In this document: positions 24,415 through 47,850 of the stretch, piece after piece
Layout: every line of letters begins with the position of its first letter
Position numbering within the stretch: position 1 is the first letter of the stretch
Assembly: GCA_041644975.1 (NCBI GenBank)
Contig: JBAZQX010000002.1
Location: forward strand, 84,603-148,602
Length of the DNA: 64,000 bases
From: Candidatus Doudnabacteria bacterium
Lineage (GTDB): Bacteria; Patescibacteriota; JAQUNI01
Direction of reading: 5' to 3'
Translations under genes and position numbers: made by a program
Notes under the pieces: model-generated
Seen by the model: only the letters and a program-made list of their open reading frames with translations
Told to the model about the DNA's origin: nothing
Database searches by the model: none

Positions 24415-24622
24415 TATGAAATTCATTTTGTCATTACGAGGAGGGCTCTTAGTCAGATCCCTCGCTTCCGCTCGGGACAGGCTCCGCAATCTCATTAAGC
24501 GATATTTATGCCTAATTTAGGAGATTGCCTGCCCGCCATCGCTTCGCTTCAGGCGAGGCGGGCGGGCTTCGGTCGGCATCAGATGCCTCCCTCGCTAATA
24601 GACGATACATTTCGTAATCCAA
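24415..24622 (+). mobile_element. MITE-like element family E (~200 bp, ~25-bp imperfect terminal inverted repeats, GC-rich structured core)
   Basis: Left end attcattttgtcattacgag. Right end ctcgctaatagacgatacatttcgtaatcc. The core is rich in ggcgggc/gcccgcc palindromes. No ORF. Confidence 0.6.
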
Positions 24623-24859
24623 GGTTCTATATTCTAACAAAATAGGTTCTAATATTATCTATCCAGGGGAGTCCATATTGAAAAATGGCTTGAATAAGCC
24701 TTTTTTTAATGAGACTTGCATAACATACAATTCTATGCTTTAATTTAGAGATTATTTTTGATGTGTTCTTTAATCAAATCTCAAGATCATTTTCGTTTGT
24801 ATCGGAGGATATAGATCTGATAAAAAATAATTCACAATGAAAAACAGGAGGTTTTAGAG

Positions 24860-25462
24860 ATGTGCCGCAGTGTTGTGATAACCTTTTTGGAGAATTATGA
24901 GAGTCTAATGCATGTTGATTCTGCTTTTAGAAAGTTAGTAGTACTTTTCCACAGAATACCGTTCTGCGCCACTTTCGGCGTAAGCTGCGCTGGAGATTTT
25001 GAGGAGACTGATGATACTGACAAATGGTATCCAAACAGCTTTGATCCTTCGCCATGGGGAAGTTTAGACATTATTATTTTACCCACTATCCCTCATATTC
25101 AGGAACTTCTGGATGTCCTTCGTAAAACTATCGGCAATTATTCCGATACCTCGTTTAAGAAAATAGATCATCCCTTTGGTCCGCCAGAGGATAGCTGTTT
25201 AGAAATATGGGAGATAAGAATTGGAGATAATGGTTGTTTGGCTAGCCTTAAGGAAGAGTATTGCGGCGGTTTTTTGTCAATTAAGGAGTATCAGATAGCT
25301 TATGAAGAATCAAAAAAAAGATGCAAAGAAATAAGGTTGTTTTGGCGAGGCCTTGAAATGGAGGTTGCTGATTTTTGCCGAAGGCACGTATTCGAAAGAT
25401 TTGGTTTAAAAAAGCGAATTGAAGAACTTGTGGGTGTTTGGAAAGAGGATTTAAAAAAATAA
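24860..25462 (+). CDS. hypothetical protein
   Basis: 200-aa ORF preceded by an SD (CAGGAGG). No recognisable domain. Confidence 0.4.
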   Translation: MCRSVVITFLENYESLMHVDSAFRKLVVLFHRIPFCATFGVSCAGDFEETDDTDKWYPNSFDPSPWGSLDIIILPTIPHIQELLDVLRKTIGNYSDTSFKKIDHPFGPPEDSCLEIWEIRIGDNGCLASLKEEYCGGFLSIKEYQIAYEESKKRCKEIRLFWRGLEMEVADFCRRHVFERFGLKKRIEELVGVWKEDLKK

Positions 25463-25653
25463 AGGTCTATTGTGCTTGAAATGGAGGGAGGGTATCAATG
25501 TCAGAACTTAAACGGCAAGATTTAGTTATATATTGGGCGGCACCTTGTTTTAGGTCCGTTGGCGCATTATCTTAATTATGCTCAAACGGGCTTTTTTATT
25601 TTCAACTTGAGAAAAGTGTCAAAGCAGAGTAAGATTAAAAAAGAGATAAAATT

Positions 25654-26382
25654 ATGCGCAAAAAACCAATTGCCATTACCACAATTTCTTTAAACAGAAC
25701 CCCCGAAGAAGGAGAAACAGTTTTAGAGACAGTTAAAATTCTGAATAGTCTTGGTATCCCCATAATAATAGCAGATGGCGGTTCCCCAATAAAACAAAAG
25801 AAAATAATGAAATCATTTTCCAATGTTACTTTTTTGGAAGCAGAAGGACTGACTAATGAAATAAAAACTACTTTTCGAAGGGGCGCGGCAATGGCTGACT
25901 CTCTTTTCTATCTTCATCTGGATAAATTGGATTTTGTCAGGAAATATGTTCCGAAATTGATTCAATACTACCTCGCTCGCAAAGATAAAAAGATGATCGT
26001 TGCCGCGCGGACTAAAAAGTCCTTCCAAACTTATCCTCCCTACCAAAGGAAAGTGGAGGAATATTTGAATTATGTTCTCGGAGACTATTGCGGTTCAAGG
26101 TCGGATTATTATTATGGTCCGAAGATTTTTTCCTCAATGCTTGTCCCGTATCTTAAAGCGCTCAAAGGGGATGTAGGCTGGGGCATTGAAGCCTATTTTT
26201 ATGTTTTAAATCACAGGCTCTCTCTGCCTATGGAATTCTATCCCGTGGAAATTACCGCCCCTGCCGAGGTGCTTGCAGACGAGCTAGAATTCAAACAATA
26301 CCGTTTGAAAGGTCTTTTGCAACAGGTAGAAGGTTTTTTGCAGGGGCAGAAAGTAGAAGTCGCAGGGCAATTCCCATCTTAA
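25654..26382 (+). CDS. hypothetical protein, possible GT-A-fold (glycosyltransferase family 2-like) domain
   Basis: 242 aa. IAITTISLNRTPEE...IIIADGGSP echoes the GT2 N-terminal layout (IPxxN...DDGS). Divergent, possibly inactive. Confidence 0.45.
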   Translation: MRKKPIAITTISLNRTPEEGETVLETVKILNSLGIPIIIADGGSPIKQKKIMKSFSNVTFLEAEGLTNEIKTTFRRGAAMADSLFYLHLDKLDFVRKYVPKLIQYYLARKDKKMIVAARTKKSFQTYPPYQRKVEEYLNYVLGDYCGSRSDYYYGPKIFSSMLVPYLKALKGDVGWGIEAYFYVLNHRLSLPMEFYPVEITAPAEVLADELEFKQYRLKGLLQQVEGFLQGQKVEVAGQFPS

Positions 26383-26549
26383 AAAGATAGCTTATTTAAC
26401 AGCCTATATTGAAAATGGTTCCTATTGTGTTATTTTTCAATGGCAAAATTTTAAAGAGCATTGTCCGGGAATACTGTAATTTTTGGCGGTTTTATATTAT
26501 AATATTAATGAAAGGCAATAAGATAAATTAAATAAAAAATAAAGAGGAG

Positions 26550-27032
26550 GTGAGAATGAAAAAGTATATTTACATCTTGGTTATTCTAGTTGTGATCGTG
26601 GCGGGTTTGGGAGCTTATTTTTTGTGGAAGCGGTCAAACGCGCCGCAGGCCGCACCTTCTTCAGGCGATGTTGGTCCGCAGAGCGTTTCGCAGGTGCTGT
26701 CGGAAGTGGAAAAGATCTCCGGGTTACCCAGCGCAAAGTCAGTAAAAGTGAAACAGGATTTTGGCAGCACAGAGAATTTGCTGGACGCTCAAGGCTTTAC
26801 CTTTACAGCAAAGTTGGGCGCGCCGGAAATTCAGCAGAAAGTGGACTCTATAGATGAGCGGCTTAAAGATCGAGGTTTTACGGCGCAAGAATTCAAGCAA
26901 CCCGAATCGGACAGTGTGGGCAATCGGTTTATAAAATACAAAAAAGGCTCCACGGAGTGCGTTTTGGAAAAAACAGACATTGAAAGCCAAGACACAAGCG
27001 AAGTCTCTTTCGGTTGTCGTGAGTTAAAGTGA
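26550..27032 (+). CDS. hypothetical secreted/anchored protein
   Basis: 160 aa. SD GAGGAGGTGAG. N-terminal TM (YIYILVILVVIVAGLGAYFLW). Confidence 0.5.
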   Translation: MRMKKYIYILVILVVIVAGLGAYFLWKRSNAPQAAPSSGDVGPQSVSQVLSEVEKISGLPSAKSVKVKQDFGSTENLLDAQGFTFTAKLGAPEIQQKVDSIDERLKDRGFTAQEFKQPESDSVGNRFIKYKKGSTECVLEKTDIESQDTSEVSFGCRELK

Positions 27033-27271
27033 AGCTCTGCGGGTCTAGAGGGAAGGCGAAGCCGCATAAAAAACAGACGCGCAATGCAATTCTAGAGAGG
27101 TAAAACTTGAGAGATTTTTGTTCAAAAAAAAATCAAAACAAAAAATATGAGGATGGAATATAGTTATTATTCTATATTTTGCCCGGGCTAATCTTGGGTG
27201 CTTTTTTTAACCAACAGACAACAAGCAAAGCAGTGATTTTGCCACTTAAATAAATTCGGCAGAGTCAAGAT

Positions 27272-30200
27272 ATGAAAAAAATAAAGGGATTGCCAATCTT
27301 TGCCCACGCACCAGCCCCACACCTTTTTAAAAGGTGGGGGACTGTATGGGGTTTCACATTTTTTTGTGCGGCACTGGTTTTATTTTTAGTGAAGATTCCT
27401 TCTGCCCTTGCTTATGGCTCTTATGCAGTGAGTTTTGGAAGTTACGCAGAAGGGATGCTTTCGGGGTTGGATCAAGAAACAATTGAATTTTACAGCGATA
27501 TTCCCGCAGGGGTAGATAAAGTAATTTTAAGCGCGGTGGGCAACGATTGCGTGCGGCGCAGTATTGATTTGTGCGGCGGGAGTCAAGAACGTTGCGAAGT
27601 AAGCGCGACTCCGGGTTCGCGAATCTATTTCAATGTGAGTTTTGATATTACGCCTTGCGGTTCCAGCCCTTCTTTTTGGTATCGGACTTATGTTTTGAAA
27701 TCGGAAGGGAGCGGCAGTGCCGACAGCGGTTTCTCCGCGAGAGCAAATGGGGAGCAGTGCAGCGCAAACAGCGAATGTCAGTCTGGATATTGCAACAATG
27801 GTTATTGTTGCACAGGGAATGTCTGTTGCGCGACTGACAGCGATTGTGCGAGCGATGCCTATTGCGGCTCTGATTATATTTGTTATTTTCAAGAAAATGA
27901 TGGTGCTTCCTGCAACCGTGCAAGGCAGTGCAAGGGCGGTTATTGTACAAATAACAAATGTAGTTCAAGTGCCTCTACTTGCGGCGATTATTATTGCGAT
28001 ACAGGAGAGACTTGCGCGAGTTGCCCGATGGATTGTGGAATCTGTAAAAAAGCGGATGGCGATTCTTGCGACTATGCTTCTCTATGCCAAGGTGGCTATT
28101 GTAATGGAGGGCGATGCGGTTCCAGCCCTTATTATTGCGGCAATGCTTATTGCGATGCGGGCGAAACCTGTGCTAATTGCGTTCGCGACTGCGGCGCTTG
28201 CCCGCGGCAAAATGGCGCCGTTTGCGATTACGATGATGATTGCGCAAGTAAACACTGCGTCCACGGCAAGTGTCGGGCAGGTGAGACTTATTGCGGGGAC
28301 AGCGAATGTGATGCGGCGGAAACCTGCGAGACTTGCGCTCGCGACTGCGGCGCCTGCGACAGTGCGGCTTGCACCAAAGATTCAGATTGTGCAGGCGGGC
28401 ATTGTGTGCACAAGAAGTGCCGTAATGAAACAACTTACTGCGGCGATGACGTTTGCGACTCGGGCGAGACTTGCGCAAAGTGCCAGCAGGATTGCTGCGG
28501 CTCGGATTTGCGTGTTTCTTTTTCTACGATGCGCTTGCAGTTGAAACCAGGGGACACGGGTAACTTAGAGATTAATTTTAGAAATGTAGCAAAATCTACT
28601 GCTGATAATGTTTATTGGAGCATCCTTGTGGATAAAGACGAATTGCTTGTTATTTCTCCTAAAGATAAAAATATTGGCACAGTGAAAGGCTCTAGTGAGT
28701 TATCCAAAGAAATAAAGATTACGGCGAAGTCTGCAGGCACGGCTTATTTGGCAATACATATTCGGGGCAATAATTTTGGCAGTATTCTGAAATTCGTCCA
28801 AGTGAATATTGAGGGAGGACTCGCGCTTGATGTGCCGGAGTCTATTTTTTTATTGCCTCAAGAAGAAAATGATTTCGGCGTTTTTGTGATTAACCAAGGC
28901 AATGAGTCAGCGCAAGTAAAGGGTTTAACCTTGGAGAGTCTGAATCCGAACGTTGTGGAGATTAAAGAGGGAGGAATAATGGAAGTGAGAGGACAGGGGC
29001 AGGGTATTAAACCAGACCAACTTTTTACTACCGAGAGTGAAGATATTTTGAAAATGATCTCCCCGCGACCGAAAATTCAGGGTCGGGACGCAGGGGAAAC
29101 TGAACTTGTTTTTAAACTTAAGTATTATCTTCCGGGGAGTAATCGCGAGGAAAGTCTAGAAAAGAGGACTAAGGTGAAAGTCGGCGCTACGCGTGGAGGC
29201 AAACAAAGTTTGCTTGATTTGCAAATCATTCCAGCCGGCATTGCTTTGGAAATAGGGGAGGCAAGAGAGTTAAAATTAGTTCTCAAAAACAAAGGCAGTG
29301 AAATCGTTAAGCAAGGTGTGATTAGAATCACTAAATCCAAGATTACCTATTTTGAATCCACCGCGGAGGTGCGCTTCGGTTTTATTGAGCCGGGGCAAGA
29401 AGCGACCGCGAAGATTGACCTTGTCGCCACAGATGAATTCCCGCCGCTTTTAAAGAAACTTGCCAAGGAGGGGGAATTAGCCATTACTGATCCTTTGTCT
29501 TTGGCAGTAGAGTATCAAACCGTGGACGGTCGCAAGTTTCAATTTCAGGACGAGATTAAAGTTTCGTTGGTGGAGAAGCGCGCCCAGTGCAAATCTAATG
29601 ACCCAGCGTGCGTTAGGGCTGTGAATTGTCTGGTAGAACTTTCCAATGCGATGAGCTGCACTCTAGAACTAGCGGATGTGATTCCATATTTAGACAAACC
29701 TGTGGCTGTGGTCCTTGCTACCGCTGATGTGTGTGAAATTGGGCAGAGGAGAGCAGGAGGTGATAGTATTGGTGCGGCGGTCTCGGCGCTTTTGATGGCG
29801 TCGGACGTAGCGGATAATGCCGCGGACGCAGTGCCGGGCGCGGGCAATTTGGCTTCCACTTTTGCGGATATCGTGGAGGGCGCAGCTGATTGCGCCGAAG
29901 GTTTTGTGCATAGCGGGGTGGATCAATATTGCGCCGGCGGCAGTGGCAAGGGTTATACCGGTTGTGCGGAAAATATTTTTAAGACCATTGCGGAGATTTC
30001 TGGTAAAGCGACAGAGCCAGCCGCCGTGCGGAAAATGGTGGTCGCTATGGTAGGCTCGCCCGTCGCCATCGCTGTCGTAGATAGTGAAGGCAAGGTTTTA
30101 ACTCCCCGGGACGGCGTTATTGTTTTACAGCAAGGGGATTTGAAACTCATTCTCATCAAAAATCCGCAGGATTTAATGGGAAGAAGCGTAAATTTTAAAA

Positions 30201-30529
30201 TTATGGGCGAGGATAATGGCAAATACAGTGTGCAGTTAGGTTTGATTGATAATGGTTCTTTAGTCAAAACGCGCGAATTAAAGGACAAAAAGATTAAACA
30301 AGATGAAGAGGTTTTAATTCCTTTGGGTGTCCGCAGTACTTCTAGCGCTCAATTGACCGATCTTTTACTGGGAAAAAGGGAGGTGGCGCGGCTGGGTCAT
30401 AAAGGATTTTTAGATACGATTTTAGACTCCCCGCGTCTATTCAAAAGCCTATTAGCTATTTTTGTTATTTTACTTGGTGGAGCAAGCGCTTTTTGGGTGT
30501 TGCGGAAGATTAAGCAGTCAAAAAGATAA
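27272..30529 (+). CDS. large cysteine-rich surface protein with 4 tandem ~46-aa Cys modules, Ig-like middle region and C-terminal TM anchor
   Basis: 1085 aa with a signal peptide. Four repeats of the form ...DGxSC.....C.GGYC....C......CG..YCD.GETC..C..DCG.C. C-terminal TM (LLAIFVILLGGASAFWVL) followed by RKIKQSKR. The GC-rich, repeat-rich DNA generates many spurious overlapping ORFs. Confidence 0.85.
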   Translation: MKKIKGLPIFAHAPAPHLFKRWGTVWGFTFFCAALVLFLVKIPSALAYGSYAVSFGSYAEGMLSGLDQETIEFYSDIPAGVDKVILSAVGNDCVRRSIDLCGGSQERCEVSATPGSRIYFNVSFDITPCGSSPSFWYRTYVLKSEGSGSADSGFSARANGEQCSANSECQSGYCNNGYCCTGNVCCATDSDCASDAYCGSDYICYFQENDGASCNRARQCKGGYCTNNKCSSSASTCGDYYCDTGETCASCPMDCGICKKADGDSCDYASLCQGGYCNGGRCGSSPYYCGNAYCDAGETCANCVRDCGACPRQNGAVCDYDDDCASKHCVHGKCRAGETYCGDSECDAAETCETCARDCGACDSAACTKDSDCAGGHCVHKKCRNETTYCGDDVCDSGETCAKCQQDCCGSDLRVSFSTMRLQLKPGDTGNLEINFRNVAKSTADNVYWSILVDKDELLVISPKDKNIGTVKGSSELSKEIKITAKSAGTAYLAIHIRGNNFGSILKFVQVNIEGGLALDVPESIFLLPQEENDFGVFVINQGNESAQVKGLTLESLNPNVVEIKEGGIMEVRGQGQGIKPDQLFTTESEDILKMISPRPKIQGRDAGETELVFKLKYYLPGSNREESLEKRTKVKVGATRGGKQSLLDLQIIPAGIALEIGEARELKLVLKNKGSEIVKQGVIRITKSKITYFESTAEVRFGFIEPGQEATAKIDLVATDEFPPLLKKLAKEGELAITDPLSLAVEYQTVDGRKFQFQDEIKVSLVEKRAQCKSNDPACVRAVNCLVELSNAMSCTLELADVIPYLDKPVAVVLATADVCEIGQRRAGGDSIGAAVSALLMASDVADNAADAVPGAGNLASTFADIVEGAADCAEGFVHSGVDQYCAGGSGKGYTGCAENIFKTIAEISGKATEPAAVRKMVVAMVGSPVAIAVVDSEGKVLTPRDGVIVLQQGDLKLILIKNPQDLMGRSVNFKIMGEDNGKYSVQLGLIDNGSLVKTRELKDKKIKQDEEVLIPLGVRSTSSAQLTDLLLGKREVARLGHKGFLDTILDSPRLFKSLLAIFVILLGGASAFWVLRKIKQSKR
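27880..28500 (+). repeat. intragenic tandem repeats (~140 bp x 4) encoding the Cys module in the 27272 gene
   Basis: tattgcgg..attattgcgat.c.gg.ga.acttgcgc.a.ttgc...gattg.gg..c.tg recurs at about 27975, 28130, 28290, 28440. Confidence 0.75.
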
Positions 30530-30540
30530 CCTATTATTCT

Positions 30541-30700
30541 ATAAATAGGACTTCCGCGTTTCATAATAATTAAACTTGGATATTTATTGTCATTCCCATC
30601 CCGTAATGAATACAGGGTAAACTCCAGCGGGAATCCAGGATTAGTGCCTCCGACCTGGATCCCCGATCAGGTCGGGGATGACATGAAACGCGAAAGATCT
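30541..30700 (+). repeat. palindromic intergenic element (related to, or a second type alongside, family E)
   Basis: ccgcgtttcataat ... tgtcattcccatcccg ... cgggaatccagg ... cctggatccccgatcaggtcggggatgacatgaaacgcg. Ends are inverted repeats of cgcgtttcat / atgaaacgcg. Marks the boundary of the GC-richer island. Confidence 0.55.
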
Positions 30701-30880
30701 GATGTTTTTAATTGAAACATTGCATTTTAGGGAAAATGTGCTAAAGTAGTTAGATGTTTTCGGGAAGGAGGGAAACATCAAAAAGTTTTGTTTTCTGTTC
30801 TTTCATAAATAAGAGCCGCAGGGGGCGGAATATTGGGTTAGGCTCTTTTTTTGTTTTTTAGCGAAGGGAGGAATTGTGGT

Positions 30881-32044
30881 ATGGCTCGGAAAGAAGTCAA
30901 TGTGGGTTTAATCGGTTACATGTTTATGGGCAAGGCGCACAGCCACGCTTATCACGATGTAGCCATGTTTTTTAATATGGACGCAAAACCAATAATGAAG
31001 GCGATCTGCGGACGTAATGAAAAAGGCGTGAAAGAGGCATCGGAGAAATTCGGCTGGGAAAGCTATGAGACGGATTGGGAAAAACTGGTGCGGCGCGATG
31101 ATATTGATCTTATTGATATCTGCGCGCCAACCAATATGCATAGGGATATTGCCATTGCCGCGGCGAAAGCGGGAAAACACATTATTTGCGAAAAACCCTT
31201 GGCTATGGATCTAGAAGAAGCGCAGGAAATGTGGGACGCGGTTGATGAAGCGCGCGTGATCAATATGGTCAACTTCAATTATCGTAAAGTTCCGGCAATC
31301 GCGCTTGCAAAAAAGATGATTGACGATGGAAAGCTTGGTAAAATCTATCACTTCCGCAGTGTCTATCTGCAGGACTGGATATTGAGTCCGGATTTCCCAA
31401 TCGTATGGCGTTTGGATAAAAGCGTTGCCGGTTCGGGCTCTCTTGGAGACCTTGGCGCTCATATAGTGGACCTTGCCAGATATCTTGTTGGTGATTTTGA
31501 CCGCGTGGTGGGAATGGAAGAAACCTTTATTAAGGAACGTCCTGTATCCGCAACAGGAATGGATGGTAAGTTATCAGCGACCGCGACGGACAAAAGTGTT
31601 AAGGGTATGGTTACGGTTGACGATGCCACTCTGTTTTTGGCTAGATTTGAAAATGGCGCTGTGGCGACTTTTGAGGCTACAAGGTTTGCCGCTGGAAGGA
31701 AGAATTACAACAGTTTTGAAATCAACGGAGAAAAAGGCAGTATAGTATTCAACCTTGAAAGAATGAACGAGCTGGAATACTACAATGTTGATGATCCTGT
31801 CGGATTGCAGGGATTCAGGACAATTCTGGCAACTGATCCGTCTCATCCGTATATGGGAGCTTGGTGGCCGCCAGCGCATATCATCGGGTATGAGCATACA
31901 TTTATTCACCAGATATATGAGCTGATGCAGGCTATAGCCAGTGGTAAATCGGCATCTCCAGACTTTGAAGACGGCTTGAAATGTCAAAGAGTGTTGGAAG
32001 CTGTGAGCTGTTCAATAGCTGACGATGGATGGGTTTATGTGTAA
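30881..32044 (+). CDS. Gfo/Idh/MocA family NAD(P)-dependent oxidoreductase
   Basis: Start chosen at the ATG after GGGAGG (MARKEVNVGLIGYMFMGKAHSHAY). Rossmann GxGxxG-like segment and the typical Gfo/Idh/MocA C-terminal alpha/beta domain. The ORF track instead starts at an upstream TTG at 30851. Confidence 0.9.
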   Translation: MARKEVNVGLIGYMFMGKAHSHAYHDVAMFFNMDAKPIMKAICGRNEKGVKEASEKFGWESYETDWEKLVRRDDIDLIDICAPTNMHRDIAIAAAKAGKHIICEKPLAMDLEEAQEMWDAVDEARVINMVNFNYRKVPAIALAKKMIDDGKLGKIYHFRSVYLQDWILSPDFPIVWRLDKSVAGSGSLGDLGAHIVDLARYLVGDFDRVVGMEETFIKERPVSATGMDGKLSATATDKSVKGMVTVDDATLFLARFENGAVATFEATRFAAGRKNYNSFEINGEKGSIVFNLERMNELEYYNVDDPVGLQGFRTILATDPSHPYMGAWWPPAHIIGYEHTFIHQIYELMQAIASGKSASPDFEDGLKCQRVLEAVSCSIADDGWVYV

Positions 32045-37284: not shown

Positions 37285-37460
37285 GAATAAACCCCGTTAG
37301 ACCCCATTAGAAATTTATTTCTAATGGGGTAAAATAAATCTCGCCTGTTTTGGGCGAGGTTTATTGTTTATACTTCCATTATGGTTTATTCCGTCCAGGA
37401 TAATAACGGAATAGTTTATCCCGTTAGATGTTTGCTATATAACGGGGTTTACCCCTATTT
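37285..37460 (+). repeat. repeat family D (nested palindromes built on ccccgttagaaataaatttctaacgggg), complex copy
   Basis: accccgttagaccccattagaaatttatttctaatggggt ... ctcgcctgttttgggcgag ... agtttatcccgttag ... taacggggtttacccc. Lies between the 37067 gene and the first NUDIX gene. Confidence 0.65.
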
Positions 37461-37896: not shown

Positions 37897-37907
37897 GCCG
37901 TCTATTA

Positions 37908-38075
37908 GCGAGCGAGCCTCGATATCCCTCACTTTACAAAAGTGAGGGATGAGCGAAGCAATCTCATAAGACTCAATATTCATTGAGTTTTAAAAAATTA
38001 TTTAAATGACTTCGAATATTGTCATTAATGAGATTGCTTCGTCGCTCCTTAAGGGTCGCTCCTCGCTAATAGACA
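37908..38075 (+). mobile_element. MITE-like element family E (opposite orientation)
   Basis: Starts ccgtctattagcgag (reverse complement of the ctcgctaatagacgg end) and ends ctcgctaatagacaaagtg. Internal ccctcactttacaaaagtgaggg hairpin. Sits between the two NUDIX genes. Confidence 0.6.
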
Positions 38076-40550: not shown

Positions 40551-40559
40551 GGATTCTTG

Positions 40560-40690
40560 GATTATGAAATTCTTAAGATACTCCTTCTTCGTCAAAGGAA
40601 AGTAAAACTTCTCCCCTGACACTTGTCTCATATTTTGTGCGGGAAGGGGAGATTAGAGAGGGGTTTATTATCAATCAGCGCGCATTATTT
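40560..40690 (+). repeat. GC-rich structured intergenic element (family-E core-like)
   Basis: See 58930 entry. Lies between 39651 gene and 40829 gene. Confidence 0.45.
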
Positions 40691-40828: not shown

Positions 40829-43087
40829 GTGATGGAAGAGATTAATGTATTTATCCCTGGGAAGATTGTGCGGTTGTCGGTAGAAGATTTGGAAGGTAAT
40901 CAAAGCGAGGAGCGCTTTAAGGTCCAAAAGAGACTCGGCACGGGTTACGCGGGCGAAGTCTATCTCTTGACCCATCAGGATTCAGAAGAGCAGAATTCAG
41001 AAGAGAAGGTAGTCTTGAAAATTATGCGTTCGGGCAATTTTTTAAAGAGAATTATCGCGCTCTTGGCGCGGCTATTCGCTACTTTTGATTTTGCTTGGTG
41101 TGAGGCGGAGGTAAAGATGGCGGTTTTGCACCATACGCTTTTACCCCTTGCGGTCAAAAAGAGGACAGGAAAAGATTATCTCATCCCTTCTTGGCGCCGC
41201 AGTTATACTTGGATTCCAGAAAAGAAGGCGTGGGGGATTTTTTTAGAGTATGATGATCTCCGTTCTGCCTATCATGGGACATTGTCCGGAGTAGGCGATC
41301 TAGAGGTTAAAGAGCGGGCGGGGGCAGCCCATATTTTAATCGATTGTTTCAAGGGGGTTGGCGCTCTTGCCTTTGCGTGGCAGTTTAATCATTTTAAACG
41401 CGAGCCGAGAGGCAGGTGGTATGTCTGGTACACCCTGTTTTGCGCCTTAGCCGTTCTTCTTCTCACCATCTTTTTAGACCTTCCTTATGATCCAAAAGTG
41501 AATGTGCTGGCGGTTTTGTGTCTTTTTTTCAGTCTCGCAGGCGCCTCTTGGTTATCCGCGGATAATCTTAAAAAAAGTGAAAAGTACGGATTTTTCCGCG
41601 GTCCGGATTTAGAGCTGGGAATGCCGCACATTGGGTTCTGTCTGCCTGTAGGATTCCTGGTTGTGTCAGCTCTCTCTCTGATGCATAAATTTTGGGGACT
41701 TTCTCCCTCTTGGGCGATTTTTTTAGCCTTACTCTTTTCTCCGGGTTATCTTTTCTTGTTTGAGTTGCCCTTGTTTTGGGAGAATATCAAGAAGGGCTAT
41801 CCTATTCCTTTTGGACAATTGGAGATAGAGGGGTTTGCTTATGCTTTCGGGAGTGATCCGGAATTTCAAGAAGATATTGAGCGATACCGCTCCCTACTTT
41901 ATCAGTTTGAGTCGGGAAGACTTAATCCGATTAACCGTTTGTTCGTTCTGTTGGTTTTAAGGCGGCTTTTGCCTTTTTTTGGGCGGGAATGGCGGTCGCG
42001 CACGATTGAACGTTGGGAACTGAAGGAAAAAATCACTTTAGAGCGAGTGCGGAAGATGCGAGAAAATTTTGCTCATTATTTCTTTTTCTTGGTGGTAAGT
42101 TTGTTTGGCATAATCCCTTGGCGTTTTATTTTAGACCGCGTTTTTCGCCATAGGCAAATCATTTATCGGAAGATGAAGCGGCTGGAAAAGATGTTGCAAA
42201 AAGGGCAGATAAGCCGCCGGACGGCAAGAGGATTAGCTCTGGTCGGAGTAAGCTTATTTTCTTTTTTCTTAAGCTTTATTCTGATTAGGAAGTTTTATCG
42301 CCTTGTTTTTGAGCGGCATTATCGGAGGCTTTGGCTGCGCAATACCTTTAAGATTTTCTGGAGCAGAGAGTTTCTGAAAAGGCGGGCGGTCGCTCGTTTT
42401 CAGCGCTATCTGACGAATCAAAGGCGCGATGGCCGCATCACGGATCAGTATTATTACAGGATAAAGCATTTACAGAAAGTAACCGCTATTCACTGGTGGT
42501 TAATCCTGTATTTTAGCTTGCTTGCCCCCAAGTCAGTCACTTGGTCTGTGCGCATCGCGGCAGTTTCAGGATTTTTAATGGCCCGGAAGTTATTAGACAT
42601 AATGCCGGGATTGCCTAACTGGCTTGCCGAGATCATCAGGTATGATATTATTCCGCACGTGCCGGGCTGGCTTGCCGCTATCATCTTGGGGCTGGGAATT
42701 ACAGCCTTATATGAGATCGTGGCCACACTGATCTTTGGAGCGTTTTTTCTCCTGCGGCTTATTCCGCGGCTGAAGGTGGAGAGGTTTTTAGTGGGTCGAG
42801 TTATTGTGGCTTTGTTGAATTTTCTCCTGTATGTTATTTTCGCTTGCCTGAATGGCGTCCCCGGATTTTCTATTTTAGGAGTGCCATTGGCTGTGTCTTC
42901 AACACCCTATCATTCTTCCTTTTGGCTGTTAACAATAATCCGTTGGCAGTCATTGTTCTTGGGATTTATTCGTCTTATATCCCTTGGAATGTGGGATAAA
43001 GGAGGACTGGGGGAATTCTATTTTGCCGAGCTTGGCGTTAACAGCCAAGCCCGTATTGTTCTTAAACTTTGCTCCCTGCCTGTTTAA
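40829..43087 (+). CDS. protein kinase-like N-terminal domain fused to large polytopic membrane domain (hypothetical)
   Basis: 752 aa. Gly-rich loop LGTGYAGEVYL and the lysine strand VVLKIMR are followed by a hinge-like FLEY. No canonical HRD/DFG is seen. More than 10 TM helices follow. Confidence 0.65.
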   Translation: MMEEINVFIPGKIVRLSVEDLEGNQSEERFKVQKRLGTGYAGEVYLLTHQDSEEQNSEEKVVLKIMRSGNFLKRIIALLARLFATFDFAWCEAEVKMAVLHHTLLPLAVKKRTGKDYLIPSWRRSYTWIPEKKAWGIFLEYDDLRSAYHGTLSGVGDLEVKERAGAAHILIDCFKGVGALAFAWQFNHFKREPRGRWYVWYTLFCALAVLLLTIFLDLPYDPKVNVLAVLCLFFSLAGASWLSADNLKKSEKYGFFRGPDLELGMPHIGFCLPVGFLVVSALSLMHKFWGLSPSWAIFLALLFSPGYLFLFELPLFWENIKKGYPIPFGQLEIEGFAYAFGSDPEFQEDIERYRSLLYQFESGRLNPINRLFVLLVLRRLLPFFGREWRSRTIERWELKEKITLERVRKMRENFAHYFFFLVVSLFGIIPWRFILDRVFRHRQIIYRKMKRLEKMLQKGQISRRTARGLALVGVSLFSFFLSFILIRKFYRLVFERHYRRLWLRNTFKIFWSREFLKRRAVARFQRYLTNQRRDGRITDQYYYRIKHLQKVTAIHWWLILYFSLLAPKSVTWSVRIAAVSGFLMARKLLDIMPGLPNWLAEIIRYDIIPHVPGWLAAIILGLGITALYEIVATLIFGAFFLLRLIPRLKVERFLVGRVIVALLNFLLYVIFACLNGVPGFSILGVPLAVSSTPYHSSFWLLTIIRWQSLFLGFIRLISLGMWDKGGLGEFYFAELGVNSQARIVLKLCSLPV

Positions 43088-43112
43088 AAAACAGCGCAGG
43101 GTTTTTTATTTT
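43068..43112 (+). terminator. terminator overlapping the stop of the 40829 gene
   Basis: ccctgcctgtttaaaaaacagcgcaggg + ttttttattttg. Confidence 0.6.
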
Positions 43113-43118
43113 GTATTT

Positions 43119-43284
43119 TTAATTACGAAATACATTTTGTTATTGCGAGAAGCTTGATTACACTCCCCCTGCCCTGAGCGGGGAGATAAGAGGGGGAGGG
43201 AGAATAGTAGACCCCTCCTAATCTCCCGCTTCTCTAAGCGGGAGGAAAAATCCTTCGCTAATAGACGGTAATATTTCGTAATTC
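43119..43284 (+). mobile_element. MITE-like element family E
   Basis: Left TIR attacgaaatacattttgttattgcgag. Right cttcgctaatagacggtaatatttcgtaat, near-reverse-complement of the left. The core ccctgagcggggagataagagggggagggag...ctcccgcttctctaagcgggagg is strongly self-complementary. Confidence 0.7.
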
Positions 43285-43308
43285 AAGCTTTTGTAATATA
43301 ATGGGGTT

Positions 43309-43986
43309 ATGATAAGCAACAAAATTTCCCGAGCCGTCATCCAAAAAATAGAAAAAGAAGCTAAAGAATATTTTCGCGGTGCGAGTGGCTGCCACGATTT
43401 TAGCCATGTGGAAAGGGTTTTGAAACTCGCGCTTCACTTGGGTCGCAGAGAAAAAGCGGATTTAGGCATTTTAGAGGTCGCGGTTTTATTGCATGATATT
43501 GGACGGCGCGCAGAAATGAAGGCGAAAGGAACTTTTTGTCATGCTGAAGCTGGGTCTGCCTTGGCGCAAAAAATTTTAGGGAAGTATAAATTTGATAAAG
43601 ACACGGTGAGGAATATTATTCATTGCATCAGGACTCACCGTTTTCGCGACCGCCGGAATGTTCCGAAAACCATTGAGGCTAAAGCGCTGTTTGACGCGGA
43701 TAAATTGGATTCTATCGGCGCGGTTGGCTTGGGTCGCGCCTTTCTATTCGCGGGTGGCGCGGGTTCGGGTAATCTTTATACGGGCAATGAGAGACGTTTA
43801 GCGAAAACAGGATGCGACTACTCTTTTACCAAGGAGGACTCTGCTTTTCTAGAATACGAAATTAAACTGAAGAAAATTAAGGATGTGATACTTACCGCAA
43901 GCGGCAGGAGGATTGCCCTTGGCCGGCATAGGTTTATGGTCAGTTTTTGGCAGCAGTTTTGGCAAGAGGTGGCAGGGAAAAAATAA
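43309..43986 (+). CDS. HD-domain metal-dependent phosphohydrolase
   Basis: 225 aa. H...HD motif: FSHVERVLKLALHLG ... LLHDIGR ... second His region IRTHR...DADKLD. Confidence 0.85.
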   Translation: MISNKISRAVIQKIEKEAKEYFRGASGCHDFSHVERVLKLALHLGRREKADLGILEVAVLLHDIGRRAEMKAKGTFCHAEAGSALAQKILGKYKFDKDTVRNIIHCIRTHRFRDRRNVPKTIEAKALFDADKLDSIGAVGLGRAFLFAGGAGSGNLYTGNERRLAKTGCDYSFTKEDSAFLEYEIKLKKIKDVILTASGRRIALGRHRFMVSFWQQFWQEVAGKK

Positions 43987-44000
43987 TGTTATAAAAATTT

Positions 44001-44561
44001 ATGCGCAAATGGAGATGTCAAAAATCAGAACTCATTTTGGATACGAAATATTTTAAAGTGCGCAAGGATACTGTCAAATTACCGAATCAAGAAATGATAG
44101 AATGGATTTATTGGGACAGCAAAGATTCGGCAATGGTTTTGGGTATGACTCCGGATAAAAAGCTGGTGATGATTCGGCAGTACCGTTATTTAGTAGGCAG
44201 GGAGGTATTGGAATTTCCCTCCGGCGGCTTGCATAACAATGAGAATATTGAGGAATGCGCGCGGCGGGAATTTGAAGAGGAAAGCGGGTATAGGTGCAGT
44301 CAGCTAATTAAGCTCGGTTCATTTTATGAAACCTATAGCCAACTTAATCGCGAAATCCATTTGTTTTTCGCGCCGCAAGCGCGAAAAACCAAACAGAATC
44401 TAGATCAAGGCGAAAAAGGTTTTGAAGATATCAAGGTAGAGCTCGTGGAGTTTAAGGACGCGGCGCGGATGGCATCCGACAATACTATTGTCGCTGTGGG
44501 CTCGGCTTTAGCAATTTTGTTACTAAAGGAGAAGATAGAAAATAAGGATATTAAAATTTAA
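44001..44561 (+). CDS. NUDIX hydrolase (ADP-ribose pyrophosphatase-like)
   Basis: 186 aa. Nudix box GGLHNNENIEECARREFEEESGY. Overall length and layout like NudF. Confidence 0.8.
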   Translation: MRKWRCQKSELILDTKYFKVRKDTVKLPNQEMIEWIYWDSKDSAMVLGMTPDKKLVMIRQYRYLVGREVLEFPSGGLHNNENIEECARREFEEESGYRCSQLIKLGSFYETYSQLNREIHLFFAPQARKTKQNLDQGEKGFEDIKVELVEFKDAARMASDNTIVAVGSALAILLLKEKIENKDIKI

Positions 44562-44573
44562 AACTATTCATTT

Positions 44574-45227
44574 ATGGCGAGTTTTAAAATTCATATTTCT
44601 TTTGGAATTATTTTGGGTATCATAGCGATGGCCGCGGTTTTGTTTTACACCTCGCTTGCCGGTGGTTTTTTGTTCGCCGTTTTATTCTTTTTAGCTATTG
44701 TTTTAGGTTCCTTTTTGCCTGATTTTGACAGTGATGAAAGTATGCCTTTTCAAATTGTTTTCGGATTAGCGGCTTTAGTTTCCGCGGCGATCATTCTGAT
44801 CTATTTTTATAAGCAAGATCCGCACAATCTTAAATTTTTAATCGGCGCGCCCCTTGTCGTTTTTATTTTTATCCGATTTATTTTGGGCGCGATTTTTAAA
44901 AAGTTTACCCACCACCGCGGTATTTTTCATTCCCTGCCGATGATGGGTGTGGCGGCGCTCTCTTCGCTTTTAATCTTTAGCCAATTTAATTTTTCGCCTC
45001 GCGAAAAGATTCTGCTCGCCGGGGGCGTGGGCTTGGGATTTTTAGGGCATCTTATCTTGGACGAACTGAAATCAGCTGCACGCTTCAGAGGGATTTTTTT
45101 GATTCCGAGCCATTCCTTGGGGAGTGCTTTGAAATTGGTATCGCGATCGCGGATCGCGACTGTTTTTCTTTATTTAATTCTAGCGGTTTTAATTGGTTCA
45201 AACTGGCCGATCCTGAAGCAATTTTGA
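44574..45227 (+). CDS. membrane-bound metal-dependent hydrolase-like protein (DUF457/YdjM-like)
   Basis: 217 aa with 5-6 TM helices. HHRGIFHSLP and GHLILDEL His motifs are typical of DUF457. Confidence 0.55.
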   Translation: MASFKIHISFGIILGIIAMAAVLFYTSLAGGFLFAVLFFLAIVLGSFLPDFDSDESMPFQIVFGLAALVSAAIILIYFYKQDPHNLKFLIGAPLVVFIFIRFILGAIFKKFTHHRGIFHSLPMMGVAALSSLLIFSQFNFSPREKILLAGGVGLGFLGHLILDELKSAARFRGIFLIPSHSLGSALKLVSRSRIATVFLYLILAVLIGSNWPILKQF

Positions 45228-45336
45228 ATGGGTTAGCGACAGCCCTTGAAGAGACTATTATTTGATAAGACCATCTTTAAGGTGTCGTTCTGGGAGATTA
45301 TATGGTAAAATAGAAATAGAAAATTAAAATAAAAAT

Positions 45337-47376
45337 ATGGAGAACAATCAAAATTTAGAGACCTTACTTCCGGAAAATCAAAAGCCATCTCCGAAGAAGA
45401 AAAAGCGAGCTGGCAAAGTAGTAGCTATCATCATTGCCGTTTTTCTTTTAGGAATAATGGTTATCTTGGGTATTCAGAGATTGACTTTCAAACCAATTTC
45501 GATTCTTGTCCCTTCTCTTCCCTCCGTCACTCAGAAGACCGAGGAGGTGAAAAAATTTGAGGGGGCGCAGGATTTCAAAGCTTATCTAGAAAAGGGGGCT
45601 ATGCTTTCCGATAGCAGCTACTATCCTTCTGGCGCGGGTTTAGGGGGCAATCTTTTAAGGGAGGGAATGCCGACTTCAGAAGCAGCCGCGCCTACTGATC
45701 TTGCCAAAGAGACTCCTTCCTCCGGCAGAGTTTCCGAAACCAATGTTCAGGTGACGGGAATTGATGAGCCGGATATTGTCAAAACCGACGGCAAGGAGAT
45801 TTATTATTCTGGAACGAACCGCTATTACCCTCTATATAGTGAAGGATCAGAGAGCGTTCCTCCCTACAGCGAGGCAAAAACACGGATTTTGAGGGCTTTT
45901 CCGCCTGAAGATTTAGCCAAGAAATCCGAAATTGACAAGACAGGCAATTTACTTTTGGATAAAGATATTTTGATTGTATTTTCAGAGCCGAATATCATAG
46001 GCTACAATGTCGCCGACCCGGAGAAGCCGGAAAAGAAATGGGAGCTTGCACTGGAAAACAGCACTACTTTGGTCGCGGCGCGTTTATATCAAGACAAAAT
46101 CTATTTAGTAACCCGCAATCAAATTAACGGAAATGAGCCTTGTCCGATTAAACCCTTGAGCGTGAATGGGGTCGCTTTAGAGTTTGCTTGCGGAGATATT
46201 TATCATCCTTCTGAAATTATTCCCGTGGATGTGACTTTTATGGCGATGACTATTGATCCCGACTCGGGCAAGGTGGAGGATAAGATTTCCTTTGTGGGTT
46301 CTTCAGGCTCTTCAGTGGTTTATATGTCTTCCGGCGCGCTCTATGTGACCTATACTTATTACTCGAGCGTGGCGGGATTTTTATTTGACTTTTATAAAAA
46401 TAAAGCCTCGGATTTAATTTCCGAAGACGCTTTAAAGAAGTTGGAGAAAATTAAGGATTATGACTTGAGCGAGCGGGCGCGCCTCACGGAAATTGAGGTT
46501 ATTCTAGCTAATTATGCGGCGTCGCTCGCGCCTGATGAGAGCTTAAGAATAGAGAATGAGACCACAAACCGTATGGCGGCTTATCAAAAAGAACATCAAA
46601 GGGAATTGGAAAAAACAGGGATTGTAAAGATGGGACTAGATAAAAGTTTAGAAGTGCAGGCGGCGGGGGCAGTGGCGGGTCGTCCCTTAAATCAATTTGC
46701 CTTGGATGAATATGAAGGTAATTTGCGCATTGCTACGACGGTGGGCGGGCGAAGCGGATTTATGGGACAAGCAGAGAGCGCCAATGATGTTTATATTCTA
46801 GATAAAAAATTAGAGCCGAAAGGACAAGTCCAGGATTTGGGGATTAGCGAGCGGATTTACGCGGTGCGGTTTATTGAAGACAAGGGTTATGTGGTGACCT
46901 TTAAAGAGACCGACCCTTTTTATGTTTTAGACCTAAGTAATCCTGAAAAGCCAGTGATGGCTGGAGAGCTTAAAATCCCGGGTTATTCCGGCTACTTGCA
47001 TCCCATTACCAAGGATAAAATTTTAGGCATTGGCGAAGAGAATGGCAAAGTTAAAATTTCTTTTTTTGATGTTTCTACTGCCGCGAATCCCAAAGAACTG
47101 GATAAGTACCTTTTGGATGAATATCACTCCGCCATTTTAGAAACGCATCACGCCTTTCTTATGGATAAAAAGCACAATATTTTTTTCTTGCCCGGGGAAA
47201 AGGGGGGGTATATTTTTTCTTACAGGGATGAAAAGTTGAAACTGGTGAAAGCGGTTTCGGAATTTAATGTGGAACGCGCGATCTATCTTGATGATTATTT
47301 ATATATTATTAGCGGTAGTAAGATTACCGTGCTCAATGAGACGAATTGGGAAACAGTCAAAGAATTGTCATTCTAG
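45337..47376 (+). CDS. secreted beta-propeller domain protein (Beta_propel-like), membrane-anchored
   Basis: 679 aa with an N-terminal TM. Repeated beta-strand blades in the C-terminal half (YVVTFKETDPFYVLDLSNPEKPVMAGELKIPGYSGYLHP...), resembling archaeal/bacterial beta-propeller surface proteins. Confidence 0.7.
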   Translation: MENNQNLETLLPENQKPSPKKKKRAGKVVAIIIAVFLLGIMVILGIQRLTFKPISILVPSLPSVTQKTEEVKKFEGAQDFKAYLEKGAMLSDSSYYPSGAGLGGNLLREGMPTSEAAAPTDLAKETPSSGRVSETNVQVTGIDEPDIVKTDGKEIYYSGTNRYYPLYSEGSESVPPYSEAKTRILRAFPPEDLAKKSEIDKTGNLLLDKDILIVFSEPNIIGYNVADPEKPEKKWELALENSTTLVAARLYQDKIYLVTRNQINGNEPCPIKPLSVNGVALEFACGDIYHPSEIIPVDVTFMAMTIDPDSGKVEDKISFVGSSGSSVVYMSSGALYVTYTYYSSVAGFLFDFYKNKASDLISEDALKKLEKIKDYDLSERARLTEIEVILANYAASLAPDESLRIENETTNRMAAYQKEHQRELEKTGIVKMGLDKSLEVQAAGAVAGRPLNQFALDEYEGNLRIATTVGGRSGFMGQAESANDVYILDKKLEPKGQVQDLGISERIYAVRFIEDKGYVVTFKETDPFYVLDLSNPEKPVMAGELKIPGYSGYLHPITKDKILGIGEENGKVKISFFDVSTAANPKELDKYLLDEYHSAILETHHAFLMDKKHNIFFLPGEKGGYIFSYRDEKLKLVKAVSEFNVERAIYLDDYLYIISGSKITVLNETNWETVKELSF

Positions 47377-47415
47377 CTGTGGTTTATATCTAACCAATCT
47401 TCTTGAAGAAATTTT

Positions 47416-47748
47416 ATGCTTGAATCTCATTCGCGATCGGCAGAGTTTGAGAACTCTTCCTATAAGGAGGAGGCAGAGGTGCCGAAGAAGAAACCCTACA
47501 AATTAGTGGGCAATCTTAGCGGACAGAATTTAGAAATTTATACCCACGCTCACGATTTAGGCGAGGCGATCCATAACGCTGGATACCAATTGGAAGAAAA
47601 ATATCGTGAACCGGAATATAGTCGCATTCCATATTTAAAAAAAAGATTTATGGAAAAGGTCATAGTATATTGTCAGGAAGATGCGGATTCCGATTGGATT
47701 AAGATTGACTCCGGGGAAGTGAATAAGATACTAACTTGGAGGAAATAA
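47416..47748 (+). CDS. hypothetical protein (likely shorter; GTG start near 47479 after AGGAGG)
   Basis: 110-aa ORF. SD AAGGAGGAGG at about 47465. No motif. Confidence 0.35.
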   Translation: MLESHSRSAEFENSSYKEEAEVPKKKPYKLVGNLSGQNLEIYTHAHDLGEAIHNAGYQLEEKYREPEYSRIPYLKKRFMEKVIVYCQEDADSDWIKIDSGEVNKILTWRK

Positions 47749-47760
47749 GAGAAATAAATG

Positions 47761-47850
47761 TGAATTACGAAACACGTTGTCGTTGTGAGGGATTTGACCA
47801 TAAGCCCTCCTCGCAATGACGGAAAGGAAGTCATAGGAAGTAATTAATTT
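47761..47850 (+). mobile_element. MITE-like family E, partial copy
   Basis: tgaattacgaaacacgttgtcgttgtgaggg ... ccctcctcgcaatgacgg. Retains one TIR (attacgaaa...) and part of the core. Confidence 0.4.

Follow-up and report, generated by a model that had tools for sequence, protein, structure and literature searches.

The window analysed here is a 64,000-nucleotide stretch of a Candidatus Doudnabacteria bacterium (GenBank assembly GCA_041644975.1, contig JBAZQX010000002.1, positions 84,603 to 148,602 of the forward strand), and our subject is family E, a set of short intergenic repeats in it whose complete copies carry inverted repeats around hairpin-rich cores. The G+C content of the window is 40.8% and its genes lie mostly on the + strand. 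A homologue search with the HD-domain protein encoded beside one of the copies gave matches named from Patescibacteria, Moranbacteria and Falkowbacteria, which marks the organism as a member of the candidate phyla radiation; no match was obtained in an Rfam scan of the window, and a tRNA scan of it gave no tRNA genes. The same organism was also assembled from ENA sample ERZ27249422 and run SRR8449827, and no insertion polymorphism was visible among these assemblies, which are 99.99-100% identical to the window. Two relatives were used for comparison: L124, a locus of GCA_028717685.1 with 93% identity in the HD protein that is syntenic with the window at ~36.5-54 kb, and L127, a relative at 79% identity. 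The complete copies, both of them miniature transposable elements with inverted repeats (MITEs), and their target-site duplications are as follows.

24407-24624, + strand: E1, complete 218-bp MITE with outer inverted repeats, inner arms, a GC-rich core and a 7-bp duplication
24400-24406, unstranded: left target-site duplication of E1, TTCTATA, abutting the element end and identical to 24625-24631
24625-24631, unstranded: right target-site duplication of E1, TTCTATA, identical to the left copy
43116-43288, + strand: E3, complete 173-bp MITE with outer ends, a hairpin core and a 7-bp duplication
43109-43115, unstranded: left target-site duplication of E3, TTTTGTA; the same duplication flanks the orthologue in L124
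43289-43295, unstranded: right target-site duplication of E3, TTTTGTA, equal to the left copy

The outer inverted repeats of E1 read CCTTGAATTATGAAAT on the left and CCTTGGATTACGAAAT as the reverse complement of the right end, which itself reads ATTTCGTAATCCAAGG. Those of E3, which has a terminator-like hairpin on one side and the HD-domain gene on the other, read TTTTTAATTACGAAAT and, again as reverse complement, GCTTGAATTACGAAAT (right end, ATTTCGTAATTCAAGC). Further in, past the outer 16 nt and a short spacer, both copies have a second pair of inverted arms, GT(C/T)ATT(A/G)CGAG on one side and CTCGCTAATAGAC on the other; in E1 the inner arms are GTCATTACGAG and GTCTATTAGCGAG. An earlier note on this DNA had placed copies with shared ends at 24.4, 37.9 and 43.1 kb. 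BLAST and end alignments bore this out for E1 and E3, but the 37.9-kb copy has only the inner arms. The repeats are real, but they begin 6 nt further out than had been noted (CCTTGA followed by ATTA..., that is, C[CT]TTGRATTAYGAAAT...).

The right ends of E1 and E3 were found to be 86% identical over 37 nt (BLAST), and pairwise alignments of the ends of the two copies gave 24-30 matches over 36-39 aligned positions. With up to two mismatches allowed, ATTACGAAATRYATT occurs five times in the window against 1.29 expected, a count reached in 0 of 100 shuffles, and CTCGCTAATAGAC four times against 1.06 expected. A profile made from related ends recovered exactly five ends in the window, at 24407, 24624, 43118, 43287 and 47759. 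The earlier note had staked its transposon reading on conservation of the inverted repeats under software alignment and on target-site duplications; the repeats held in BLAST, in the end alignments and in the profile search, and the duplications are exact over 7 bp at both E1 and E3. The two cores are unrelated to each other. That of E1 consists of several GC-rich hairpins, among them the stem GCAATCTC...GAGATTGC, and the element folds as single-stranded DNA with -43.8 kcal/mol (z = -4.8), while that of E3 is built of CCCCTC/GGGGAG-type hairpins. E1, E3 and their metagenome relatives are intergenic and hold no open reading frame (ORF), in keeping with the non-coding content and size of MITEs, which span about 70-300 bp.

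Public metagenomes were scanned with the pattern ATTACGAAA-N(3-9)-GTCATTGCGAG, and the same ends were found in more than 118 stretches among the matches listed, in Ryanbacteria, Magasanikbacteria and other Patescibacteria; when proteins encoded next to them were looked up by exact sequence, the host contigs came out as Candidatus Ryanbacteria, Candidatus Magasanikbacteria or 'Patescibacteria group'. The matches fall into two groups, of which Group A comprises the true relatives of family E. These elements are 111-224 bp long, mostly 133 bp, lie in unrelated flanks and have the layout CTTTGAATTACGAAAC-spacer-GTCATTGCGAG-...-CTCGCAATGAC-spacer-GTTTCGTAATTCAAAG. Their terminal 16 nt, written C[CT]TTGRATTAYGAAAY, are nearly invariant (consensus CTTTGAATTACGAAAC, with at least 80% conservation in each column). 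Among 39 unique two-ended elements from the window, L124 and the metagenome loci, the flanks carried an exact 7-bp duplication in 20 and one with at most one mismatch in 26. Randomly paired flanks matched exactly in 0.4% of cases, registers shifted by 1-3 nt gave 0-1 exact duplications, and the histogram of exact duplication lengths had its one peak at 7. A+T makes up 85% of the duplicated target sequence, which tends to have T at position 1 and A at position 7 (a T-A...T-A bias).

The same outer ends were also detected around a repetitive extragenic palindromic (REP) dimer of the ATCCCGC type in L025_6116, where the flanks match at 6 of 7 positions, and around CCCCTC/GGGGAG hairpins in L101_2127, like those of E3. 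Since the same outer ends bracket unrelated cores, it is the outer ends, and not the hairpins, that define the mobile unit. A scan of a genome collection with the right-end variant of the window gave one match, in L005 (a metagenome-assembled genome labelled Saccharibacteria), in a search that did not retrieve the window's own genome. Scans of viral contigs with both long end patterns gave no match, and a literature search for GTCATTGCGAG returned unrelated primer sequences only.

Group B, from the same metagenomes, is a second MITE family that is unrelated to family E; its elements measure 137 bp, end in CAGCAATTCTCGGTGAAA...TTTCACCGAGAATTGCTG and have target duplications of 9 bp (exact in 11 of 28). 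Its sites lie in metagenome loci L007-L121, for example L038 5720-5856 and L077 5093-5229. The centre of the element, CTTCGCAATGAC-GG-ATTACGAAAACTTGTCTT-GTCATTGCGAG-CGGAGCGAAGCAATCTC, is the REP arm of family E in the opposite arrangement.

The earlier note had further called for an autonomous partner with matching ends, and one was found: insertion sequences (ISs) of the IS982 family in Patescibacteria, which have the same ends and 7-bp duplications. The ~120 loci of the first scans contained no two ends in inverted orientation at a spacing of 0.7-3 kb, nor was there a transposase close to any solo end. A viral-contig scan with the bare 16-mer listed more than 120 matches, of which almost all were isolated and looked random; when scored again with the end profile, they yielded one inward-facing pair, 1025 bp apart, in the IMG/VR contig L207. 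This 1025-bp element is bounded by CTTTGAATTACAAAAT...ATTTCGTAATTCAAAG and holds a single ORF of 268 aa, which scored 99 bits on Pfam DDE_Tnp_1_3 (cutoff 27) and had as its best NCBIfam model IS982, at 114 bits and thus below the cutoff of 130. Its homologues at E <= 1e-20 number 2692, some of them with names from Candidatus Yanofskybacteria or the name 'IS982 family transposase [Patescibacteria group bacterium]'. Many of them lie on ~1-kb contigs, as would be expected of an assembly-breaking repeat. Three of the four transposases (P0238, P0281 and P0308, at 135.0-135.9 bits) passed the NCBIfam IS982 cutoff of 130.

The partner ISs are 1021-1028 bp long, with one ORF of 266-269 aa (a DDE transposase) between two inverted repeats that read C[CT]TTGAATTACGAAA[CT]; elements around the homologue genes end in CCTTGAATTACGAAAC...GTTTCGTAATTCAAGG or CTTTGAATTACGAAA[CT].... 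This fits the IS982 family, described as ~1-kb elements with one transposase gene between two inverted repeats and direct repeats of variable length, IS1187 being listed with 7-bp direct repeats (Fayad et al. 2020, PMC7335449). The partner copies are flanked by TATATAT on both sides in L261 and L262 and by TATAATA on both sides in L270; in L207 both flanks are GTATCCA if the terminal G, the one ambiguous base, is assigned to the flank. Compared with the IS ends, the Group A MITE ends are identical in 16 of 16 nt and in 21 of the first 24; the window ends, E1 included, agree in 12-14 of 16. The Yanofskybacteria-type IS occurs together with many of the MITEs in metagenomes Ga0209541, Ga0209542 and Ga0209343.

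Across assemblies, the P0238 IS copy in L259-L268 was seen joined to varying combinations of three left and three right flanks, of which only some yield a 7-bp duplication; this mixing is most simply explained by assembly chimeras or by recombination across identical IS copies. In the 5' untranslated region of the L261 IS (~1406-1500), a hairpin GCTATCATTGCAAGAGTCGCGATTCTTC...GAAGAACCGCGACTCGCATAAT separates the left end from the start codon of the transposase gene. In its outer part it is similar to the GTCATTGCGAG...GCAAT REP arm, and to judge from this likeness the hairpin may be the origin of the MITE inner arms.

The above findings make it very probable that family E consists of Patescibacteria MITEs mobilised in trans by an IS982-family DDE transposase; the reading of the repeats as non-autonomous transposable elements thus gains support from their ends, their 7-bp duplications and a matching IS. 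In our model, the outermost 16-24 nt of each MITE end are the ends of an IS982-family IS of ~1.02 kb. The transposase would bind both inverted ends and excise the element by the cut-and-paste chemistry that we infer from the IS982 family, and the element, which would have acquired its hairpin core, would then be joined to a staggered 7-bp cut in an AT-rich target, repair of the cut giving the 7-bp duplication. The window holds two intact copies (E1 and E3), one truncated copy (E4), a solo end at 40.56 kb and an end-less dimer (E2). As none of the 40 window ORFs scanned gave a transposase gene, current mobility would need an IS elsewhere in the genome. Alternatively, the window copies are immobile relics, E3 predating the split from the relative with 93% protein identity.

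Several points weigh against this interpretation. A clean duplication is absent from 13 of the 39 elements, which are moreover not all independent, a few being the same site in different metagenomes; the result was unchanged by this. The window ends have diverged from the IS ends, as the 12-14 of 16 matches indicate, and a Pfam scan of the 40 window ORFs detected no transposase and the window holds no full IS, nor was a transposase or IS seen in the 20.7-kb syntenic stretch of L124. The partner is known from other Patescibacteria and one IMG/VR contig, and an IS in the genome of the window copies themselves is presumptive. The ends begin with CC or CT (CCTTGAATTACGAAAC, CTTTGAATTACGAAAT) and not with the AC typical of IS982: AC starts 57 of the 69 IS982 members in ISfinder and CC five (PMC7335449). 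Set against the IS982 consensus AC(N)6T(N)5TT, the partner ends have the T at position 9 and lack the TT at 15-16. One IS copy, in L269 (~1395-2450, GCA_043808605.1), is flanked by an inverted repeat, GACTATAACCA/TTGGTTAGTC, and not by a direct duplication. Finally, E2, which has no IS ends, and E4, which has one, are explained by the mechanism only as remnants. These copies, together with the solo end, are listed here.

37900-38074, unstranded: E2, 175-bp palindromic dimer of REP-like units, GTCTATTAGCGAG...GCAATCTC / GAGATTGC...CTCGCTAATAGAC
47758-47820, + strand: E4, truncated copy with one outer end, ATGTGAATTACGAAAC, and one hairpin, GTCGTTGTGAGGG...CCCTCCTCGCAATGAC
40556-40572, + strand: solo outer end CTTGGATTATGAAATTC, matching the E1 left end at 16 of 17 positions, directly after the YhfC gene

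E2 lies between two NUDIX genes. Its inner arms, GTCTATTAGCGAG and CTCGCTAATAGAC, form a perfect 13-nt inverted pair, and its fold reaches -52.7 kcal/mol (z = -12.5); it has neither the outer IS982-type ends (ATTACGAAAT) nor a target duplication. The 37.9-kb copy is thus a bare hairpin dimer and no full family member. A TTGGATT beside E2 was considered as a remnant outer end and rejected: it is native, conserved NUDIX coding sequence, because L127, which has no E2, reads TTGGGTT at the same place. The partial copy that had been noted at 47.76 kb is real, E4 sharing 34 nt at 85% identity with the inner hairpin of E1 (BLAST); both its second outer end and a target duplication are absent. The solo end at 40556-40572 had gone unremarked in the earlier note. 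Its pattern gave two matches in the window, this site and E1, with 0 expected, and it is probably what is left of a degraded copy. By eye, a degenerate right end (9/16) and duplication (5/7) could be proposed for it, but these matches were too weak and were rejected.

The relatives gave a view of how these elements change. E3 is orthologous in L124 (9783-9980), with the same insertion point, TTTTGTA duplication and outer ends. Flanks and outer arms are collinear, and the core is inverted relative to the window (43116-43288). The L124 copy also holds an extra hairpin module of ~38 nt (CGCCCGCCTCGCCTGAAGCGAAGCGATGGCGGGCAGG), which in the window is present in E1 and not in E3. E2 is likewise present in L124 between the two NUDIX genes, with collinear arms and an inverted central loop (window 37954-38042 against L124 ~2073-2161, 89 nt at 88% identity on opposite strands). 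The inversions of the E2 loop and of the E3 core would be the outcome of recombination between inverted arms. The elements are therefore old enough for related species to have them in common, and their interiors turn over fast, hairpin modules being gained, lost and inverted. Comparison of filled and empty sites, which had also been proposed, succeeded in part. E2 is absent from L127, where a gap of 51 bp that holds only a small hairpin separates the NUDIX genes, and the 73-bp block at 47750-47822 that contains E4 is absent from L124, but both are sites of elements without two IS ends. For the full copies there is no such pair of sites: E3 is filled in both the window and L124, and no orthologous site was recovered for E1, the 97% homologue being on a 1-kb contig whose sequence departs from the window ahead of the site and the 64% homologue having other neighbours.

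The earlier note had also listed core-related elements at 30.5, 40.6 and 58.9 kb. Those at 40.65 and 59.07 kb do share a motif with the E3 core, but the one at 30.5 kb is a different repeat.

40647-40663, + strand: hairpin-tail motif GGGAGATTAGAGAGGGG, common to the E3 core (43181-43197) and 59068-59084
59068-59084, + strand: third copy of the GGGAGATWAGAGRGGGG-type motif, adjoining a CTCCCCTGACAAGGGGAG hairpin
30588-30683, unstranded: inverted dimer of TGTC-tagged REP units, not family E, TGTC-ATTCCC...GGGAAT-CCAGG / CCTGG-ATCCCCGA-TCAGG-TCGGGGAT-GACA

The 17-nt motif GGGAGATWAGAGRGGGG has three matches in the window against 0.07 expected. The 30.59-kb element is a bare dimer without IS ends or duplication, and a single 51-nt unit, 82% identical to it, lies at 56031-56081. 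Seen by eye, the dimer is bracketed by a 9-nt inverted pair, CGCGTTTCA (30555-30563) and TGAAACGCG (30684-30692).

We sought to characterize the interiors of the elements. The inner arms and most cores are organised as REP dimers: a unit (C/T)GTC-ATTGCGAG-variable-CGAAGCAAT-C(T/C)C is followed, across a variable loop, by a second one in inverted orientation. The inner arms are generally (C/T)GTCATTGCGAG, with GTCTATTAGCGAG as the window variant, and the REP units often contain extra nested hairpins, as in E1. The available text of Di Nocera et al. 2013 (PMC3733652) defines CGTC REPs by a CGTC, TGTC or CCTC tag, an 8-9 bp stem that starts with A-T pairs, a loop of 4-5 nt and a CCA-like tail, mostly in inverted dimers and with no associated transposase. 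A CGTC tag is present in the right arms of E1 and E3 and in the left arm of E2 (cCGTCTATTAGCGAG), and a TGTC tag in the 30.59-kb units as well as the metagenome consensus. E2, the 30.59-kb element, the 133-bp metagenome elements and copies from Novosphingobium and Aulosira all form inverted dimers whose tags face outward. The right unit at 30.59 kb, TGTC-ATCCCCGA-CCTGA-TCGGGGAT-CCA, fits the text definition exactly (stem 8, loop 5, tail CCA). The family-E unit, ATTGCGAG-N-CGAAGCAAT-CTC, has the AT start and a C-rich tail; only its ATTGC/GCAAT parts pair cleanly, and the sequence inside them varies and is often expanded. Judged by the text description, and not by the sequences of the four published families, the ATTGCGAG unit is plausibly a CGTC-tagged REP: ATTGCGAG was not found in the available text or supplement of PMC3733652, where family consensuses are given in figures.

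When plasmid and phage records were searched by BLAST with the 133-bp consensus, the inner REP arm alone was matched and the outer ends never. The hosts were Novosphingobium resinovorum, Novosphingobium aromaticivorans (named as a CGTC-2 host in the available text of PMC3733652), Methylosinus plasmids, three cyanobacteria and Helicobacter prophages, with the arm at no fewer than 40 places on one N. resinovorum replicon. Three matches that were inspected, in Novosphingobium and Aulosira, have the same hairpin dimer, CGTCATTGCGAGCGTAGCGAAGCAATCC...GGATTGCTTCG...CTCGCAATGACG; those in Methylosinus and Helicobacter are shorter. Such REP-like hairpin interiors, found also in unrelated phyla, are the sole unusual feature of otherwise ordinary mobile DNA.

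A number of further observations concern the arm. Alphaproteobacteria, Cyanobacteria and the candidate phyla radiation have the sequence (C/T)GTCATTGCGAGCGTAGCGAAGCAATCC in almost the same form, and REPs of the CGTCATTGCGAG type occur across phyla. Loci with the arm include L134 1501-1590 (N. resinovorum pSA1), L135 (N. aromaticivorans pNL2) and L136 (Aulosira laxa plasmid); in the Helicobacter prophage L133 the match falls within a Mu-like transposase gene. A single unit, ATGTCATTGCGAGCGTAGCGTGGCAATCTCCCGGAAGGG, without an inverted partner, is common to two unrelated human faecal 'Bacteriophage sp.' scaffolds (L137 401-440 and L138 401-442).

One extension of our model, which we put forward tentatively and regard as rather doubtful, is that CGTC-type REP dimers in Patescibacteria are interchangeable cargo between IS982 ends, moved by the IS982 transposase. 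If true, it would explain why no fewer than three kinds of core that are unrelated to one another (dimers of the ATTGCGAG type, dimers of the ATCCCGC type and CCCCTC hairpins) lie between the 16-nt ends, why the REP arm recurs in Group B, whose ends are different and whose duplication is 9 bp, and why bare dimers such as E2 resemble copies stripped of their ends. REPs that cross phyla and are reported without a dedicated transposase would then have a concrete route of mobilisation.

The hairpins could also be the mobile units themselves. On this account, REP palindromes, or bacterial interspersed mosaic elements built of them, would spread as single-stranded hairpins by a REP-associated, IS200/IS605-like tyrosine transposase or another REP mechanism, with the outer repeats incidental. 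The inner arms and most cores do fit the CGTC-REP description in the available text (tag, AT-start stem, CCA-like tail, inverted dimers), near-identical arms (CGTCATTGCGAGCGTAGCGAAGCAATCC) recur as hairpin dimers in Novosphingobium and Aulosira with shorter matches in Methylosinus plasmids and Helicobacter prophages, and both E2 and the 30.59-kb element are bare dimers free of IS ends and duplications. The complete copies, however, have a precise 7-bp duplication and ends that match a DDE-type IS; Y1 (IS200/IS605) transposases are not known to make target duplications. Furthermore, no Y1 transposase was seen in the 40 scanned window ORFs, and the same outer ends occur around the unrelated cores of L025_6116 and L101_2127. 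We therefore consider this account improbable. Inversion of the interiors suggests a different possibility, that the elements are invertons whose cores flip between inverted arms and so switch neighbouring genes on or off. The E3 core and E2 loop do lie in opposite orientation in the window and the 93% relative between collinear flanks and outer arms, and a promoter-like ATGACA-17-AATAAT in the E2 loop (37997-38025, minus strand; 10/12) faces away from the NUDIX gene downstream of it in the window and would face that gene in L124. Yet the promoter count is at chance (one found, 0.9 expected), a single orientation is seen in the other assemblies of the organism (two samples, 99.99-100% identical), no recombinase gene lies nearby, and inversion of a hairpin loop between its arms is a common neutral mutation. 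We give this possibility almost no credence.

The earlier note had allowed that the structured cores might be small RNAs. In this case the elements would be structured RNA genes, regulatory modules, terminators or mRNA stabilisers, kept by selection on RNA structure, with mobility secondary. Such a role would agree with their strong folds (z from -4.5 to -12.5), their intergenic location between same-strand genes and the retention of E2 and E3 across 93%-identity divergence, and according to the available text of PMC5896051 the MITEs of Coxiella do give rise to small RNAs. Against it, no Rfam match was obtained, promoter- and terminator-like sites were not above chance, and the cores are wholly different from copy to copy and change orientation from one relative to another. 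Of the 36 pairs predicted in 14 related elements, 32 showed no compensatory change, and the covariation term was -0.29 kcal/mol. Pairs that are near-invariant and do not covary fit conservation of the arms as specific sequences, and not selection on RNA structure. The small-RNA alternative thus found no support, and a predicted RNA function appears very improbable.

The window contains other repeats besides family E. The palindromic repeat CCCCGTTAGAAATAAATTTCTAACGGGG, with short conserved flanks, is a separate intergenic family of five copies, and several genes have behind them a recurring terminator-like repeat, AAAAAATCGCC-loop-GGCGATTTTTTG and then (G)TAAAATAAAA. Composite intergenic repeats consist of a hairpin GGGGTCAGGTCTTGAAATTTGACCCC, then GC-rich GCGAGTAGCGGGCCACGTCGCTCGCGAGC, then GGTAAAAT.TGATAAACTAAG, two copies being up to 92% identical over 86 nt.

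37298-37341, 48553-48608, 50242-50291, 60568-60617 and 60924-60973: copies of CCCCGTTAGAAATAAATTTCTAACGGGG (families D7, I2-I8)
6470-6526, 6926-6953, 8941-8997, 16364-16432, 18845-18913 and 21463-21531: copies of the terminator-like repeat (families D6, D8, D13)
8720-8797, 10983-11121, 17740-17918, 18688-18777 and 7951-8014: composite repeats (families D9-D16)

In-frame tandem repeats were observed at 2385-2881, 3636-4311 and 27976-28504, inside two very large ORFs: a 1003-aa GLUG/HYR protein has tandem periods of 78-87 nt and ~207-240 nt, and a 1085-aa protein has cysteine-rich tandem units of ~156 nt.

Of value here is a defined MITE-IS pair in Patescibacteria, whose ends are known, whose duplication is 7 bp and whose target is AT-rich (T-A...T-A); no paper describing Patescibacteria MITEs was found in the literature searched. 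Such a pair helps to explain assembly breaks and intergenic 'junk' in small genomes and offers a marker for strain tracking. It also connects REP-like hairpins of the CGTC type, for whose spread the literature offers no explanation, with a chassis recognised by a transposase, and so to a route that can be tested. The fast turnover of interiors at ~93% protein identity cautions against reading 'structured cores' as conserved RNA genes, and in annotation short ORFs called over these repeats should not count as genes.

Parts of this system have counterparts elsewhere. Like the CGTC-tagged REPs in the available text of PMC3733652, the inner arms have a (C/T)GTC tag, an AT-start stem, a CCA/CTC tail and an inverted-dimer arrangement. 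Unlike them, family E has inverted-repeat ends and a candidate transposase; that text describes the published families with no dedicated transposase and no such ends, uses neither 'duplication' nor 'target site', and does not have Patescibacteria among its five listed phyla. IS982-derived MITEs are already known, a ~240-bp MITE derived from ISCca4 having been reported in Cardinium (PMC9769881). As there, the parent IS is ~1 kb with a single DDE transposase, and the short derivative keeps the inverted repeats without the transposase gene; the short flanking direct repeats of variable sequence are likewise a feature of the IS982 family. The differences are that the ends here are CC/CT instead of the usual AC, that the host belongs to the Patescibacteria, which like other candidate phyla have 0 mentions in PMC7335449, and that the interior beyond the ends is not visibly derived from the parent IS but consists of REP-like dimers and other GC-rich hairpins that vary by copy. 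In architecture, the closest published analogue is QMITE2 of Coxiella burnetii. As given in the available text of PMC5896051, QMITE2 is 150-190 bp long, with terminal inverted repeats, unique 7-9-bp direct repeats and an internal REP; it lies between genes or 3' of them, its REP part is shared with distant taxa, and its 'small' versions are bare REPs without inverted or direct repeats, parallel to E1 and E3 as compared with E2. QMITE2 has a REP of the GTAG type and is itself a target for IS1111, whereas the REP-like units of family E are of the CGTC/TGTC type, and while that text names no parent transposase for QMITE2, the partner IS of family E has been identified.

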